DNA of 64,000 nucleotides, taken from Gekko japonicus (Eukaryota). Location: assembly GCF_001447785.1 (NCBI RefSeq), contig NW_015163761.1:1-64000 (forward strand), given 5' to 3'. The first letter of the stretch is position 1, and the number at the start of each line of letters is the position of its first letter. Shown here in pieces: positions 3,397 through 56,041 of this stretch. The position numbers and the translations under genes are program-made. Under the pieces are notes generated by a model, which saw nothing but the letters and a program-made list of their open reading frames with translations, was not told the DNA's origin and did not search any database.

Positions 3397-3563
3397 TATT
3401 TAAATATCATTTGCATATGACCAATATTGTCGAATTGCTGAAGCATTACCAGAGGATAGATGTCGAGCTATGTTAATTCTCTGCCTTGTCCCCCCCCCCC
3501 CCCCCCCAGGCAAAAGCTCAGCACGACTATTTAGATCACTGGCATTACACATGAGTCTTCACT

Positions 3564-4341
3564 ATGATGAAAATGGAGGAGAGAAACCCTGCAGGCTGCA
3601 TACCTGGTGTGACATCAGAGGGACCAGGAAAAGAACGCTACAATGGCCCATACTCTGTAGACTGCACGTCTCTGATAGACTCTGAGAGAGAAAGTAAACG
3701 CCTGGAAACTATGCAGCCTGCAAGCAGTGGGGGATCCTTCCGATCGGCACCTCCTTCAGATCAGGTGAAAGAAGAGCCACAAGAAGGTTTGGCTGAGCAC
3801 TGGGAAGCCCGATGGCAGGAGTTCCTAAGGAGGGTGGAGTCCCCTCACTCAGGGTGGGGAATCTCACCACAGCAAGAGAAGCCCTCTCCGTGGGAAGACA
3901 CGAAAAGCTTTCTGGCCTCCTTCGAGCAAGTAGCCGAAGCCTGCCAGTGGCCTAGAGAACAGTGGGTCAGCAGGCTCTTGCCGGCCCTCAGCGGAGAACC
4001 CAAGCAAGCTTTTATTGTCTTAGATGCTGCTGACAGAGAGGATTATGGGAAGGTGAAGGCAGCCATCCTGCGAGGGGACGTCCTCAGCCGGGAGAAACAG
4101 CGCCAACACTTCAGGCGTTTCCATTACCAAGAGGCCGAGGGGCCGAGAGGGGCTTACGGCCAACTCCAGGACCTTTGTCGTCAATGGCTCAAAGTGGAGA
4201 GGTGCTCCAAGGAGCAGATCCTGGAGGTGCTGATCCTGGAGCAGTTCCTGACCATCCTGCCCCCGGAGATCCAGAGCTGGGTGAGGGAAAGTGGTCCAGA
4301 CACCTGCTCTCAGGCGGTGTTTCTGGCTGAGGATTTCCTGC
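3564..4341 (+). CDS. Gene A, extended-SCAN exon (3' end lost in N gap 4342-4465)
   Basis: Acceptor after a C-run (AG 3508-3509) and start MMKMEE. SCAN box [20 protein letters not shown]...[24 protein letters not shown]...AVFLAEDF. Confidence 0.9.
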
Positions 4342-4465
4342 NNNNNNNNNNNNNNNNNNNNNNNNNNNNNNNNNNNNNNNNNNNNNNNNNNNNNNNNNNN
4401 NNNNNNNNNNNNNNNNNNNNNNNNNNNNNNNNNNNNNNNNNNNNNNNNNNNNNNNNNNNNNNNNN

Positions 4466-9390: not shown

Positions 9391-10664
9391 GTTGTAGGGG
9401 GAAGAGTGAAAATGAGAGCGTGCCATGTGGGTTACCATCAGAACAAGTCAAATGTGAACAGCTGAAAGAGAACTTCTCGGATCAAAGTGGACCACAAAGC
9501 CAGGAGGAGGACCATGTGGAGAAGAGGACAGAGTCATCCATTTCTTGTCGGGTTGGGGACGTCCACGAAATCACAGTCCAGCAAATGGAAGAAAGAAATG
9601 ACTTCATTGGTGCTCAGTGGAGAATCCACATGGAACTTCCAGAATGCGGGATGCTCAGCACAGGAAAGAAACCATATCAATGCCTGGAATGTGGCAAGAG
9701 CTTCAATCGCAGTTCAACGCTTAGGTCCCATCAGCGACTCCACACAGGGGACAAACCTTTCGAATGCTTGGAGTGCGGCAAGAGTTTGTGTGATAAGTCA
9801 AGCCTTATTCAACATCAACGAATCCACACAGGGGAAAAACCGTATAAGTGCTTGGAATGTGGGAAAAGCTTCATTCAGAGCTCAAAGTTAACTCGACATC
9901 AAAGGATGCACACAGGAGAGAAAGTGCATAGCTGTTCGTACTGTGCCAAGAGTTTTAGTGATAAATCAAGCCTTATTCAACATCAACGGATCCACACAGG
10001 GGAAAAACCATATAAGTGCTTGGAGTGTGGGAAAAGCTTCAATCAGAGGGCAAACTTTACTAGACATCGAAGAATGCACACAGGGGATAAAGCATATAGC
10101 TGCCCTGACTGTGGGAAGAGCTTGTGTGATAAATCAAGCCTTCTTCAACATCAAAGAATCCACACAGGTGAAAAACCATTTAAATGCTCGGAATGTGGAA
10201 AGAGCTTTAACAAGAGCACCAACTTTGTAAGACATATGAGAATCCACACAGGGGAGAAGCCTTTTAGCTGCTCCTACTGTAGCAAGAATTTCTATGATAA
10301 AGCAAGCCTTATTCAGCATCAAAGGGTTCACACAGGGGAGAAACCATTTAAATGCTTGGAATGTGGAAGGAGGTTCAGTCACAGGGGAAGCCTTCGTGGA
10401 CATCAAAGACTCCACACAGGGGAGAAACCCTACACATGCTCTCACTGTAGCAAGAGCTTCTTTGCTCTATCGAGCCTTCTGAAACATAAGACAACTCACA
10501 CAGGGGAGAAGCCATATAAATGCACGGCATGTGGAAAGAGCACACACCTCAGCTCAGATCAAAGGACGCACCCAGAGAAGGAGCAGTATAAATGCTTAGA
10601 CTGTAGCAAGACTTTTTGTGATCAGCCGGGTCTTGTGAGAACAGCCATGGAAGAAACAGTGTAA
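9391..10664 (+). CDS. Gene A terminal exon: 10 intact plus 2 degenerate C2H2 zinc fingers
   Basis: TTCCAGCAG|GT phase-1 acceptor. Repeated C-x2-C-x12-H-x3-H units with TGEKP linkers, stop at 10662-10664. Confidence 0.92.
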
Positions 10665-13225: not shown

Positions 13226-14468
13226 CAAAGGCTCCTAAGTAAGCTCAATAGTCACGGGATAAAAGGACAAGTCCTTTTGTGGATCAAAAACTGTCTGATT
13301 AATAGGAAACAGAGATTGAGTATAAATGGGCAATTTTTTCAGTGGAGGGTGGTAAGCAGTGGGGTACCGCAGGGATCAGTACTCAGTCCGATGCTTTTTA
13401 ACTTGTTTATTAATGATTGAGTTGGGAGTAAGCAGTTAAGTGGCTAAATTTGCAGATGACATGAAGTTGTTCAAGGTGGTGACAACCAAGAGGATTGTGA
13501 GGCACTCCAAAGGGATCTGTCGAGGATGGGCGAGTGGCCATCAACATGGCAAATGGGGTTCAATGTGGCCAAGTGCGAAGTGATGTATACTGGAGCCAAA
13601 AATCCTAACTATAAATACACATTGATGGGGTCTGAACTGGCAGAGAATGACCAAGAGAGATCTTGGAGTCGTAGTAGATAACTTAATGAAAATGTCGAGA
13701 CTGTGTGCAACTGCAATAAAAAAGGCCAACGATATGCTGGGGATTCTTAGGAAGGGTATTGAAAACAAATCAGCCAGTATCATGCCCCTGTATAAATCAA
13801 TGGTGTGACCTCATTTGGAATACTGTGTATAGTTCTGGTCACCACACCTCAAAAAGGATATTATAGCATTGGAAAAAGTGCAGAAAAGGGCAACTAGAAT
13901 GATAAAAGGGTTGGAACACTTTCCCCATGAAGAAAGGTTAAAGTGCTTGGGACGCTTTAGCTTGGAGAAACGACAGCTGACTGGTGACATGATCAAGGTC
14001 TGTAAGATTATGCATGGGATAGAGCAGGTAGAGAAAGAGGTACTTTTCTCCCTTTCTCAGAATACAAGAACTCATGGGCACTCCATGAAATTGCTGAGCT
14101 GTCGGGTTAGAACGGATAAGAGGAAGTACTTCTTCACCCAAAGAGTGATCAACACTTGGAATTCACTGCCACAGGAGGTGGTGGCGGCTACAAGCATGGA
14201 CGGCTTCAAGGGGGAATTGGATAAACATATGGAGTCAAGATCTATCTGTGGCTATTAGCCACAAGGTATAGATAGGAACTCTCAGTCTGGGGCAAGTGAT
14301 GCTCTGTATTCTTGGTGCTGGGGGGGCAACAGTGGGAGAGCTTCTAGTGCCCTGGCCCCACTGGTGGACCTCCCAATGACACCTGGTATTTTTGGCCACT
14401 GTGTGACAGAGTGTTGGACTGGATGGGCCATTGGCCTGATCCAACATTGGCTTCTCTTATGTTCTTAT
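13226..14468 (+). mobile_element. CR1 LINE, 5'-truncated (RT domain to 3' UTR)
   Basis: GVPQGSVL and AKFADD RT motifs. ORF 13869-14258 ([15 protein letters not shown]...FFTQRVINTWNSLP) and a TTCTTAT tail, with frameshifts. Confidence 0.92.
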
Positions 14469-20475: not shown

Positions 20476-21134
20476 ATGTCATGTGCAGGGACTGTGAGAT
20501 CCCTCTGCAGAGTATCTCCACATCAGGTAAAGGAGGAGCCAGAGGAGGGTCTGGCTGAGCAATGGGAAGCCCAGTGGCAGGAATTCCTCATGACCGCAGA
20601 GTCACCTCTCTCAGACGGGGCAATCCCACAGCTGCCAGAGAAGCCCACCCCGTGGGACAATGCCAAGGCCTTCCTGGCCGCCTTCGAGCAAGTGGCTGAA
20701 GCCTGTCGGTGGCCTAGAGACGAGTGGGCGACCCGACTCCTGCCAGCCCTCAGCGGAGAGGTCGAGCAGGCCTTTAACAGCCTGGAGGCCCGAGACAAAG
20801 AGGACTATGAAAAGGTGAAGGCGGCCATCTTGCGAGGGGACACCATCTGCAGAGAAAAGCTACGTCAACGCTTCCGGCATTTCTGCTACCGGGAGGCCGA
20901 TGGGCCGCGGGGGACTTACGGCCAGCTCCAGGAGCTTTGCCGTCGGTGGCTGAAGGTCGAGAGGCACTCCAAGGAGCAGATTCTGGAGCTCTTGATCCTG
21001 GAGCGGTTCCTGACCATCCTCCCACCAGAGATCCAGAGGTGGGTCCGAGACCGTGGCCCAGAGACCTGCTTCCAGGCGGTGGCCCTGGCTGAGGAATTCA
21101 TGCTGAGGCAGCCGCCGGCTGAGAGACCGGAGAT
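20476..21134 (+). CDS. Gene B, extended-SCAN exon (3' end in N gap; start uncertain)
   Basis: QVKEEP...WEAQWQEFL...[15 protein letters not shown]...REKLRQRFRHFCYREADGPR...[17 protein letters not shown]. First in-frame ATG is at 20476. Confidence 0.85.
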
Positions 21135-21722
21135 NNNNNNNNNNNNNNNNNNNNNNNNNNNNNNNNNNNNNNNNNNNNNNNNNNNNNNNNNNNNNNNNNN
21201 NNNNNNNNGCCGCAGGCTGAGAGGCAGGAAATGCAGGTGGGACTGTTTTTGCTGCCCTGCCCTTGGGGGCAGGAATGGGTGGTGGGAATGGATCAGGCGA
21301 GGCCACTTGGTGGCCTATGCAGTGCATATCGATTTCCGTCTCCTGTGCTGTTGCTGTCTCTGACCACCCAAGAAACACCTCAGGCTAGACCTGGCTCAGG
21401 TTCTGGGGGTGCTGACTGTCTCCTCATCTGGTGAACCCTTTCTGAGTGTTGGCACCATCCTTGCTTTGTTGCCCAAAATGGCAGCGTTGCATGGTTCAGG
21501 TAGAGAAAAGCAACTGAGATCTCTGGCCATCTCAAAGCGCTTGGGGAAGGGGAAGAGTGGAATGTGATTTAGAAGACGTAGAAGAAGAGATTGGACTTAT
21601 ACCCCGCCCTTCACTCGGAGTCTCAGAGCGGCTTACAAACTCCTTTCCCTTCCCCTCCCCACAGCAGACACCCTGTGAGGTGGGTGGGTCTGAGAGAGCG
21701 CTTTCCAGAACTGCTCTTTCAA

Positions 21723-26946: not shown

Positions 26947-27803
26947 GTGATGGGCAACTGAATGAGAACAAGGGAGAAATATACAGCAAGTTGTGTGAAA
27001 GAGCCAGGTGTGAAGCATCGAAAGAGAACTTCCATGATCCAAGTAAATCAATAGCACAGGTGGAAAACGAAGCCAAGACTGAGGGGAATGACTCTCTTGC
27101 ATCTGTGGGTATGGAGTATCTCAAAAACCCCATCAGAGATGAAACCCAAGCAGAAAAGAGAAGGAACAAGTGCCGTGATATTCGCTGGAGGGTCAACCTG
27201 GAGGAAAAACCCAATAAAAGCTTGAAGTTTGGGAAGAGCTTCAGCCAGACCAGAAATGCTGCGACGCACCACAGACTTCACAGAGGGGAGGTGCCATATA
27301 AGTGCTTGGAGTGTGGAAAGAGCTTCAACTACAGGGGCAGCCTCACTTCCCATCAGAGAATCCACAAAGGAGAGAAGCTCTACACCTGCAAAAACTGTAG
27401 CAAGACCTTTATCCGCAAATCCATCCTGAACCTGCACTTGCGGATGCACGCGGGCCAGAAACCCTACTGCTGTTCTGACTGCGGCTTGACCCTGAGCGCT
27501 CAGTCGAGCCTTGTTCGACACCAGAGAATCCACACCAAGGAGAAACCCTACCACTGCTCGGAGTGTGGGAGGAGCTTCAGCCAGAGTTCGGACCTTATTC
27601 GGCACCAGAGAACCCACACTGGGGATAAGCCGTACAAATGCTCTGAGTGTGGGAAGAGCTTCAGTCGGAGCACAGGCCTTACTTCACATCAGAGAACCCA
27701 CACAGGGGAGAGGTCATACCAATGCTTAGACTGTGGCAAAGGCTTTTGCGAAAAATCAAATCTTATTCAGCATAAGAGAACTCACGGGGGTGAAGCGGTG
27801 TAA
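26947..27803 (+). CDS. Gene B terminal exon: 1 degenerate plus 6 intact C2H2 fingers
   Basis: CTGAAG|GT phase-1 acceptor after a pyrimidine tract. Fingers run from YKCLEC to YQCLDC...HKRTH, stop at 27801-27803. Confidence 0.9.
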
Positions 27804-37928: not shown

Positions 37929-38672
37929 ATGAAAATGGAGGAGGAAGATCCAGTGAGTGGGATGCAAGAGCGGGAAGCCAAAGGTGGCAGAAAAGACGTT
38001 CACATCCTCCAGGCGGGGACTCTTGGAGAGGCCTTGGAGGGAATACCTGAAGGAATTCTGGTTAAACAGGAACCAGCTGAGGGTCCCCTGCAGCAGTGGG
38101 AAGCCCAGTGGCAGGAGTTCCTGAAGACTGTGGAGAGCCCTCAGTCCAGGTGGGTGATTTCAGAGTTGCCTCAGGAACCCACCCCCTGGGATGACACCAA
38201 GGCCTTCCTGGCCTCCTTTGAGCAAGTGGCTGAAGCCTGCCAGTGGCCCAAGGAAGAGTGGGCGGCCCGTCTCCTGCCAGCCCTCAGGGGAGAACCTGAA
38301 CAAGCATTTAGCAACTTGGCTATCCGAGACAGGGGTGATTATGCAAAGGTGAAGGTGGCCATTTTGCGAGGGGATGCCATGCGGAGGGAAAAGCAGCGCC
38401 AATACTTCCGCCGTTTCTGCTACCAGGAGGCCGAGGGGCCTAGAGGGACGTACAGCCGGCTCCAGGAACTTTGTCACGGATGGCTGAGGGTAAAGAAACA
38501 GACCAAGGAGCAGATCCTGGAGCTTTTGATCCTGGAGCAGTTCTTGACCATCCTGCCCCCGGAGATCCAGAGTTGGGTGAGGGAAAGCGGCCCAGAGACC
38601 TGCTCCCAAGCAGTGGCCCTGGCTGAGGAGTTTCTGCAGATGCAACGGGAGGCCCACAGACGGAAGCAACAG
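37929..38672 (+). CDS. Gene C, extended-SCAN exon (complete)
   Basis: Acceptor GCCAG at 37880, start MKMEEED, LVKQEP, full SCAN box and donor CAG|GTGAGA (phase 0). Confidence 0.92.
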
Positions 38673-38777
38673 GTGAGATGGTTTCACCCTTGTCAGTCAT
38701 GGGAGAGTGTCTGGTTTGGGCACAGGAAGCTCCTCTAAGTCATATTCTTAATTTGTTATAATCGTTCTTGTTTAATC

Positions 38778-43742: not shown

Positions 43743-44548
43743 GTTACATGCAGGTGAGAAAACGTGCAGAGAAAACCAATCCTATGGACTGTTTGGAGCT
43801 TGTGGAAACAGGTGGCAGTTTCCAAAGAACAATGGAGACCATTTCTGAGGGAGGAGGAAGAACTCAGGAGGGCCCCGATGGGCCGCAGAGAACTCACCCG
43901 AGGAACAGACTGAGCAATTCCAGTTCTGGTGGGGTAAGGAAGGTCCTCAGCGAAAGCCTAGCGGGGCCCAGAGATGTGACCTGCACTGTTGCTGAGGGAG
44001 CCTTCAGGGAGGAACTGGTCCTTCCCAGACATGAAGGACCCCCTAATCAGGATGCATTCTCACAATGCGGAAGGAACGTCGTTCGCAAAGACCTGCTGAT
44101 GCGGCATCAGCGAATCCATGCATTGGACAAACCGCGGAAAAGCTTGTACAGTGGGAAGGCCTTTTGTCCAAGGCCAAGCCTGGTGTTTCACGAAAGAACC
44201 CAAGCGGAGGAGAAACCCTTCCAGTGCTCCGGCTGCGGGAAGCGGTTCACTCGCAATTCCCTCCTCATCAAACACGAAAAGACCCACGGGGGAGAGAAAC
44301 TCTACAACTGCTCGACCTGTGGGAAGGGCTTCGTTTATAGCTGGAACCTCATCAAGCACAAGAAGAAGCACACGGGCGAGAAACCGTACCAGTGCACGGC
44401 CTGTGGGAAGACCTTCTTTGAGCGTTCAGACCTCCTCAGACATGAGAGAACCCACACGGGAGAGAGACCCTATAAATGCTCGCTCTGTGAGAAGTGTTTC
44501 AGTCAGAAGTGGCTGCTGATCAAACATGAACGAACGCATATGGAATAG
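43743..44548 (+). CDS. Gene C terminal exon: 2 degenerate plus 4 intact C2H2 fingers
   Basis: CCCAAAAG|GT phase-1 acceptor. Fingers FQCSGC, YNCSTC, YQCTAC and YKCSLC; the stop follows the last His by two residues. Confidence 0.9.
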
Positions 44549-51535: not shown

Positions 51536-52882
51536 CATTTATAAATGACCTGGAGGAAGACATAGAGGGGATGCTTATCAAATTTGCAGATGACACAAAG
51601 TTAGTGGAATCGCTAATTCTGAAGAAGACAGAGTTAGGATTCAAATGATCTAGATAGGCTGAGACAAATAAAATGAATTTCAATAGAGAGAAGTGCAAAG
51701 CTTAGGTACAAAAAATCAAAGGCACAGCTATAGAATGGGAGGGACTTGGCTTGACAGCAGCACATGTGAAAGGGATCTAGGGTCCCGGTCACATGAGCGG
51801 GATACTGCGCCGCTGAAGGGAGGCAAATTAGAGCCGGAGCAAAAAGAACCGCAGTAGCGTGATCCGACACAACCCGTGGCTCCGTGCTCCAGCCTTTGGC
51901 AGGCGATCAGACATAGTGTGGCAACATGGATGTTGCACGTTTGTGTGCATGCGTGGGACAGGGAACGGCGCTGGCTGCGACAGGCTACCAGCGCTTCCTC
52001 GATCAGATGCCTGGAGTTGCCGCGCGTCATCTGGAAGGTAGTGCTCTGTTGCCAGTACCTTTTCAATGCATGTTTTTGGGCCGAAGGGACGGATCGGGGA
52101 CGGGTGCGTGACGCTTCCCAGATGTTGCGGTATGATCGCGCCCGTTTGATGTGCCCTCGACCTGTCCGTTTTGCAGGTCAAATCCTCCCGTGTGACTGGG
52201 GTCCAGGTGCTCTGATTGATCACAAGCTAAACATGAGCCTGCAGTGCGATGTGGCTGTGAAGAAAGCTAATGCAATCTTAGGATACATAACAGAAGCATA
52301 GTGTCCAGATCACGGGAGGTGGTAGTTCCACTCTATTCTGCTATGGTCAGGCCTCACCTGGAGTACGTCCAGTTTTGGGCACCACATTTTAGGAAGGATG
52401 TTAACAAGCTCGAGTGTGTCCACTCGAGGGCAACCAGGATGGTGAGAGGGATGGAATCCAAGTCTTATGAGGAAAGGCTGAAGGAGTTGGGTATGTTTAG
52501 CCTGGGAAAGAGAAGGCTTAGAGGGGACATGATTGCAGTCTTCAAGTATTTGAAGGGCTGTCATGTAGAAGATGGAGCAGATCTATTCTCTCTTGCTCCG
52601 GATTGCAAGACTAGATCTAATGGGTGGAAATTACAAGGGAGTCGTTACCGGCTAAATATCAGGAGAAACTTCCTAACTGTAAGAGTGGTTGAGTAGTGGA
52701 ACGGTCTGCCTCAGGAGGTGGTGGATGCTCCTTCGTTGGACGTTCTCAAGCGGAGGCTGGACGACCATCTTTCGGGTATGTTGTAGGTATATAGGGCTAT
52801 CTTTCGGCTATGCTCCTGCAGAGTGCAGGGGGTTGAACTAGATGACCTGCCAACTCTAACATTTTATGATTCTATTATTCTA
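51536..52882 (+). mobile_element. CR1 LINE (second subfamily), 5'-truncated, interrupted at 51781-52203
   Basis: FINDLEED.EGMLIKFADDTK, ORF 52301-52696 (PLYSAMVRPHLEY...) and an ATTCTAT-type tail. Confidence 0.9.
51781..52203. mobile_element. CpG-rich non-autonomous DNA transposon (PIF/Harbinger-like)
   Basis: Imperfect TIRs GGTCCCGGTCACA / TGTGACTGGGGTC. It cleanly interrupts the CR1 with an apparent 3-bp TAG/CAG duplication. Confidence 0.6.
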
Positions 52883-55318: not shown

Positions 55319-56041
55319 ATGGAGGAACAAGACCCCCTAAAATGCACCTTCAGGAAGAGGTCAGAAAAATCTCACATCCTCCAGGCAGCGTATGTCAAAG
55401 ATCTCCTGCAAAGGAGAACAGGAGAACACATTAAACAGGAGCCCAGTGAGGGCTCCCTTCAGCGGTGGGAAGTCCAGTGGCAGGAGTTCCTCAGGACAGT
55501 GGACTCTCCTCAGTCTCAATGGACGGTCCCACACTTGCCAGAGAAAGCTTCGCCCTGGGAGGATGCCAAGGGCTTTCTGACCTCCTTTGAGCAAGTGGCC
55601 GAAGCCTGTCGGTGGCCCCAGGAAGAGTGGGCGACCCGACTCCTACCAGCCCTCAGTGGAGAAGCCCAGCAGGCCTTTATCAGTTTGGGGGCCAGGGACA
55701 GAGAGGATTATGGGAAAGTGAAGGCAGCCATTTTGCGAAGGGACGCCATCAGCAGGGAGAAGATTCGCCAACACTTTAGGCACTTTTGCTACCAGGAGTC
55801 AGACGGGCCAAGAGGAACATACCGCCGGCTCCAGGAACTTTGCTGTCAGTGGCTAAGAGCGGAGAATCACAGCAAGGAGGAGATCCAGGAGCTCTTGATC
55901 CTAGAACAGCTGCTGAGCGTCCTGCCCCCGGAGATCCAGAGCCGTGTGAGGGAGAGCGGCCCCGAGAGCTGCTCCCAGGCGGTGGCCCTGGCCGAGGAGC
56001 TCCTCTTGAGGCAGAGAGAGGCCAAGAGACAGGAGCAGCAG
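55319..56041 (+). CDS. Gene D, extended-SCAN exon (complete)
   Basis: (VK)MEEQDP...HIKQEP...[15 protein letters not shown]..., SCAN box and donor CAG|GTGAGG (phase 0). Confidence 0.9.

Follow-up and report, generated by a model that had tools for sequence, protein, structure and literature searches.

Four tandem exons and their zinc-finger arrays

The window analysed here is a 64,000-nucleotide stretch of a Gekko japonicus contig. It carries four copies of a coding exon, all on the plus strand, in which a conserved block stands ahead of a SCAN box at the places where the first-pass annotation had put it. The SCAN box scored above the Pfam cut-off in all four copies (121-129 bits), each in a single open frame. 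A full-length Gmr1-like capsid domesticated by its host, and joined to zinc fingers in Anolis, has been described as ESCAN, with reference to Emerson and Thomas 2011 (PMC3406341), and this name is used below. The ESCAN coding exon of gene 1 runs from its Met to SCAN at 3564..4341 (plus strand), where its 3' end is cut by an N run (4342-4465), and an acceptor-like polypyrimidine stretch with AG lies upstream, ending at 3509. Within this exon we distinguished a psi-K-x-E motif (VKEE, 3765..3776), which we take to be a SUMO-consensus site, a conserved WExxWQEFL helix (3786..3839), a variable linker (3840..3884; pLDDT <50), a capsid N-terminal lobe (NTD) with four predicted helices resembling the Arc N-lobe (3885..4088), and the SCAN domain, which is the capsid C-terminal lobe (4089..4341; 125.6 bits, Pfam). 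The ESCAN unit of gene 2 occupies 20548..21105 (helix 20548-20601, NTD 20647-20850, SCAN from 20851), and its exon end falls in the N run 21135-21208. The coding exons of gene 3 (37929..38672; helix 38082-38135, NTD 38181-38384, SCAN 38385-38651) and gene 4 (55319..56041; helix 55451-55504, NTD 55550-55753, SCAN 55754-56020) are each followed, just 3' of SCAN, by a GT donor, at 38673 and 56042, respectively.

One C2H2 array was found downstream of each copy, on the same strand in all four cases. The array after copy 1 lies at 9681..10505 (10 fingers by pattern, 11 by Pfam), that after copy 2 at 27303..27791 (6 fingers), and that after copy 3 at 44225..44545 (4 fingers by pattern, 5 by Pfam), while the likely finger exon of gene 4 is at contig positions 64324-64728, just outside the window. 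The order of the exons and the predicted proteins of this gecko (P0029) and of three gecko relatives suggest that ESCAN exon and finger exon likely form one gene. The block is 100% identical in P0029, which NCBI names Gekko japonicus zinc finger protein 436-like. No pattern match to KRAB was found in 73 kb, and none is annotated on P0029. Two further open frames in the window, at 13833-14258 and 52271-52696, presumably resemble the 3' end of a CR1-type LINE reverse transcriptase. Beyond the window, the minus strand carries a further zinc-finger array (L106, contig 71797-72850), oriented oppositely to the others and occupying more than one frame.

The block ahead of SCAN and Gmr1-like Gag

We compared the four copies part by part. 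The mean pairwise identity of the six window pairs was lowest in the N-terminal flank (30%) and the linker (47%), higher in the helix (65%), and highest in the NTD (72%; 68 residues) and SCAN (74%). These values agree with the earlier description of the block as conserved about like SCAN and far above the flank. The block had also been read as capsid over ~95 aa; this was borne out for ~70 aa, which form a capsid lobe, while the first ~30 aa (psi-KxE motif, helix and linker) gave no alignment to Gag. The capsid lobe of the block measures ~68 aa (3885-4088 in copy 1), and helix and linker make up the other ~33 aa. Pfam contained no family for the block itself, sequence-only PDB searches found SCAN and did not find a capsid NTD, and the ESM Atlas returned unnamed clusters together with DUF7041 (0.91) and DUF1759 (0.88), which we treat as leads only.

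A search of the gecko's own genome with the block gave at least 150 matches (150 scored of 1115 candidates), and the block was present in 765 of 923 candidate proteins, which excludes a chance resemblance. Among the best 150 block matches, 102 were taken as host-like and 48 as element-like, and the sequences of 105 of the 150 were retrieved; the element-like matches begin only at about query residue 20-30. All seven long element frames scanned showed the order SCAN, zinc knuckle (CCHC), integrase and reverse transcriptase, with a protease-family match before integrase in four, and this order is that of Gmr1-like elements (10.1101/2025.03.03.638093). In tblastn, the NTD and SCAN of the window matched 15 of 15 element loci at 34-38%. 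Alignment of 43 host rows with 22 element rows by hhalign gave 156 ungapped columns starting at residue 33 (probability 99.9), over which the host and Gmr1-like Gag profiles were 37% identical. Since this profile alignment runs ungapped from residue 33, ~70 residues of the block correspond, at the level of sequence, to the part of Gag directly ahead of its SCAN-like lobe.

For the WExxWQEFL helix, hhalign gave no alignment to Gag. With an 18-column helix profile, all 30 Gag N-termini stayed at or below 0 bits; this test is weak, because the same profile gave two turtle ESCAN N-termini no more than 1.5 and -3.2. The helix occupies the position of the Gag N-terminal helix, and it may be of Gag origin.

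The fold was then predicted with AlphaFold2 from a 71-row alignment. The model had a mean pLDDT of 83 and a pTM of 0.63, with an uncertain first helix, a disordered linker and confident helices thereafter. Foldseek with the whole model placed SCAN and the capsids of Arc (148 columns, both lobes), MLV, Ty3 and PNMA2 at the top, and the top 36 rows of VIA-align were all capsid chains, including the Arc N-lobe against residues 29-101. The NTD predicted alone (pLDDT 86) had four helices, and its best match was the Arc N-lobe at residues 211-286 (Z 8.8, rmsd 2.2 Å, 76 aligned). Among the rows listed by Foldseek for the NTD alone, the top 11 were lobes of Arc or PEG10, although no row reached E 0.001. 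Capsid C-lobes also scored Z 6-8 against the NTD model, because the N- and C-lobes of capsids share a fold, so that the structure search does not by itself single out an NTD; the assignment is made by position and by the alignment to Gag. The fold predicted for the lobe is thus four-helix and Arc-N-lobe-like, in line with the suggestion that the block would resemble capsid NTD structures. The further proposal that the block joins SCAN as a two-lobed Gmr1-like capsid finds the Gag alignment and the predicted fold in agreement.

The window copies were also considered as remnants of transposable elements. A search for a zinc knuckle and Pol (protease-integrase-reverse transcriptase) after the capsid found no CCHC behind any window copy, and a splice donor comes after SCAN in the third and fourth copies. 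This reading was rejected, also in view of the dN/dS values and the host-clade tree given below.

Range, selection and decay of the lobe

The 120 listed proteins with the block came from geckos, lacertids, skinks, anguimorphs, iguanians, amphisbaenians, snakes and turtles. In a 47-row NTD+SCAN tree, a subset of 21 host, 8 gecko element and 18 other element rows from which two partial rows were left out, the 21 host rows fell on one side of a branch supported at 99/90. An 86-row quick tree agreed on the host clade (SH-aLRT 100). These trees place the host ESCAN copies in a single clade apart from the elements.

Several irregular ESCAN models were seen in this survey. Two or more ESCAN units occurred in 45 of the 120 proteins, many of which may be gene-model fusions of tandem genes; a 1229-aa two-unit protein was common to three turtle species. 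Seven predicted proteins (P0069, P0002, P0003, P0007, P0009, P0107 and P0049) join ESCAN to one or other further domain, namely a Tigger/CENP-B transposase (PF03184, PF03221, PF04218), PF13837 or an integrase zinc-binding domain. A fish NLR family CARD domain-containing 3-like protein (P0136) has part of a Gmr1-like capsid NTD close to its C terminus, which may be a gene-model artefact. In the gecko, L013 and L014 lie on different contigs with identical ESCAN cores, as a recent or an assembly duplicate, and the ESCAN of L025 is split across two frames.

Many Gmr1-like copies of several subfamilies are present in the gecko genome (L031-L045, L071-L099). Flanking direct repeats were 93-100% identical in 11 of the 14 Gmr1-like loci examined, an identity that short-read assembly may inflate, and by this sequence measure the elements are young or recently active in this genome. 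Gmr1-like elements have been called depleted in reptilian genomes (10.1101/2025.03.03.638093), to which Gekko japonicus may be an exception. Compared with present-day gecko elements, which are not the donor lineage, the window-type NTD was 38-51% identical (45%) and SCAN 24-35% (30%).

We estimated dN/dS for each part of the exon by three methods, among paralogues rather than orthologues. Pooled over the six window pairs, the values were 0.25 for the helix, 0.37 for the linker, 0.20 for the NTD and 0.18 for SCAN. For 43 of the 58 gecko paralogues (13 with a decayed NTD, one duplicate and one without the helix were dropped), IQ-TREE with kappa fixed at 1 gave 0.21, 0.51, 0.25 and 0.21, and our own site model gave 0.5, 0.65, 0.3 and 0.23, in the same order. 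The helix value thus varies by method (0.21-0.5), while the NTD stays at 0.20-0.30 against 0.18-0.23 for SCAN. In a comparison of M8 with M8a on the 43 paralogues, using a home-made grid model, a class with dN/dS >1 brought no gain in the NTD or SCAN; the linker alone gained from it (4.8 units). The dN/dS comparison among paralogues that the first-pass annotation had proposed therefore points to purifying selection on the NTD, with a constraint like that of SCAN, and positive selection was not found. The 13 decayed paralogues had a higher NTD dN/dS (0.44), a value that is circular because they were chosen by low NTD identity. Three presumed orthologues of gene 1 from other gecko genera, assigned by similarity alone, retained 85-91% identity in the NTD, 86-89% in SCAN, 61-78% in the spacer and 93-94% in the fingers. 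By these identities gene 1 is a stable gene rather than a fast-moving one.

The lobe is not kept throughout the family. The host NTD profile scored 16-74 bits in 13 of the 58 gecko paralogues, against 94-143 bits in the rest. Among the best 150 SCAN matches of the genome, a block match was listed for 41 and not for 109, so the greater part of the family lacks the lobe. Of 20 drawn at random from those 109, none had an intact lobe (best 35 bits), and six kept the helix. The psi-KxE motif precedes the helix in 4/4 window copies, in 25 of 58 gecko paralogues and at 73 of 142 motifs in other reptiles, compared with 106 of 1779 background windows. These patterns suggest that helix and lobe behave as two distinct modules. 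In one group of paralogues (L060-L070, L074, L107-L126), the psi-KxE+WExxWQEFL helix and SCAN are kept and the NTD has decayed into a spacer of similar length, which often ends in a second VKxE motif; other paralogues are short SCAN-only exons.

Possible roles of the retained lobe

The homology of the block was already known, and the window therefore adds members to ESCAN rather than a new system. The statement that lizard SCAN genes retain extra Gag sequence was right in that ~70 aa of the block are a capsid lobe, and it had already been published as ESCAN. Like Anolis ESCAN, the window genes combine a full-length Gmr1-like capsid with C2H2 fingers; Anolis proteins match at 53-69%, and there is no categorical difference from ESCAN as known through citing papers. 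To ESCAN as those papers present it, we add a fold model of the lobe, regional dN/dS, the psi-KxE+helix module and decay intermediates. No structural or assembly test of ESCAN was found in the literature searched, in which subscription journals are poorly covered. In the accessible text of the relevant papers, SCAN is listed as a known co-option (PMC8321522), is omitted from a capsid survey (PMC11011659), and is treated as a box on its own in a study of its squamate expansion and one capture (10.1101/2025.03.03.638093).

Other relatives differ more. Mammalian ZSCAN/ZKSCAN proteins (ZNF24, ZNF174, MZF1, PEG3) also carry SCAN ahead of fingers, and phmmer matched mammalian SCAN at residues 105-186 (E 1e-23 to 1e-15), but solved SCAN constructs cover the C-lobe only. 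Gmr1-like Ty3/Gypsy Gag has the NTD and CTD in the same co-linear order; unlike it, the host exons lack the zinc knuckle, Pol and LTRs, their SCAN is followed by a splice donor, and their N-terminal strand is remodelled. Arc, dArc and PNMA2 share the predicted two-lobed fold and include the best structural match of the lobe, but they are separate domestications with 9-24% identity and without fused finger arrays, and dArc and PNMA2 have been shown to form capsids, whereas for the window genes the fold is a prediction. RTL8, Ty1 p22/p18, Drt2 and Fv1 are likewise host-encoded capsid lobes beside a related live element; in contrast to them, the window genes are fused to fingers, positive selection was not found in them, and their family has at least about 100 paralogues.

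On this evidence we consider it nearly certain, as far as sequence can tell, that the window genes are tandem ESCAN zinc-finger genes. As to mechanism, we lean, slightly beyond an even balance, towards factors that bind DNA in the nucleus as SCAN dimers, retain the extra lobe for interaction and carry the SUMO-helix part as a module of its own. Each protein would place both Gmr1-like capsid lobes ahead of its zinc-finger array and would pair through SCAN; dimerisation and DNA binding, often to transposon-derived DNA, would follow the pattern of known SCAN proteins. In humans, SCAN-ZFPs form dimers through SCAN and exert chromatin effects at transposons (10.1101/2025.03.03.638093). The extra lobe would bind a partner or pack on SCAN, by analogy with the peptide groove of the Arc N-lobe, and the psi-KxE motif with the helix that follows would form a separate cofactor/SUMO module. 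In dArc the N-terminal chain fills this groove, and in rat Arc the groove binds peptides (10.1101/697193); PNMA2 is similar to dArc in its ring and groove arrangement (10.1101/2023.02.09.527862). The lobe would accordingly be a retained protein-binding module rather than a shell-building unit. Against this explanation, a capsid-facing role would also explain that the NTD is closer to the elements (45%) than SCAN is (30%), and the window proteins share the helix-strand-four helices-five helices layout of the capsid builder dArc.

A shell-type role, in which the NTD keeps capsomer-type NTD-NTD or NTD-SCAN contacts and SCAN dimers form rings or small lattices that cluster finger arrays on chromatin, seems unlikely to us. 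Both lobes are complete and co-linear with Gag, the model aligns across both lobes to Arc, dArc1, PNMA2 and Copia capsids, and many polar NTD positions are nearly invariant. The helix before the lobe also leans towards amphipathic, like that of dArc (equalled by 18-155 of 2000 shuffles). However, the N-terminal strand ahead of helix 1 has been remodelled in the main clade (45 rows), where it lacks a hydrophobic position kept in the elements and basal hosts. In the dArc capsid ring, an acidic helix 1 faces basic helices 2-3 (10.1101/697193). Mapped onto this interface by analogy, without coordinates, the 45-row clade departs from the elements at two acidic positions of helix 1 and one basic position of helix 3, each conserved in 94-100% of 17 element rows; the element pattern is better kept in seven basal and turtle rows. 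The 109 SCAN matches without a listed block match also speak against it. A prediction of four chains of gene 3 residues 1-104 (helix, linker and NTD), made with the alignment unused, scored 0.00 and was counted neither way. The NTD start is more Gag-like in four basal gecko loci (L053, L057, L064, L072) and in turtle P0054, P0056 and P0068. By sequence, an assembly function, if any is retained, would more likely be found in the basal gecko and turtle proteins than in the window genes.

That the proteins, besides binding DNA, bind or co-assemble with Gmr1-like capsids and poison them, in the manner of RTL8, p22/Drt2 or Fv1, we hold to be improbable, although a target is present in the young Gmr1-like copies of the same genome, 11 of 14 examined element loci having near-identical repeats. 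The NTD is 38-51% identical to gecko elements, and RTL8 enters and poisons PEG10 particles via its NTD at an identity below 30% (PMC11684626). The yeast Ty1 lattice poisons, by contrast, are subfamily-specific through three interface residues and need the C-lobe alone (PMC12530519). The gecko elements lie on a branch apart from the host genes, and the finger arrays and psi-KxE would point to the nucleus. Arms-race factors are expected to show positive selection on the capsid-facing domain. The home-made grid model found no such class in the NTD or SCAN of the 43 paralogues, and the candidate orthologues of gene 1 keep their NTD and fingers (85-91% and 93-94%), so that the indirect signs lean against an arms race for the window genes. 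We give an equally improbable standing to a combined picture of squamate ESCAN proteins as transcription factors polymerising by capsomer contacts, whose ~100 paralogues would form mixed rings on chromatin and jam young Gmr1-like capsids.

Very unlikely, finally, is an NTD that is a structural relic, packing on SCAN so that damage would misfold the protein and having no partner of its own: its graded decay in 13 of 58 paralogues, the lack of an intact lobe in the 20 sampled SCAN exons and the truncated form that is the only one reported for mammals in the accessible text of PMC3406341 would fit, but its constraint equals that of SCAN in geckos, lacertids, anguimorphs, iguanians, snakes and turtles, polar positions included, and the moderate pTM of 0.63 gives no sign of fixed interlobe packing.

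The domain of which the human version has lost half is preserved in reptiles in its ancestral, complete form. In the gecko genome, genes with an intact lobe, with a decayed lobe and the helix, and with SCAN only stand side by side with young Gmr1-like elements. The targeting of proteins to capsids by SCAN is a speculation in print, for which evidence was said to be lacking in the accessible text of PMC4592553. Since all of these stages and the young elements occur in one genome, the speculation of 2011, by which capsid targeting was the first function of SCAN, can be tested directly on small recombinant domains. Should the lobe still be able to assemble, these genes would form a family of transcription factors whose multimers arise by a capsid mechanism.
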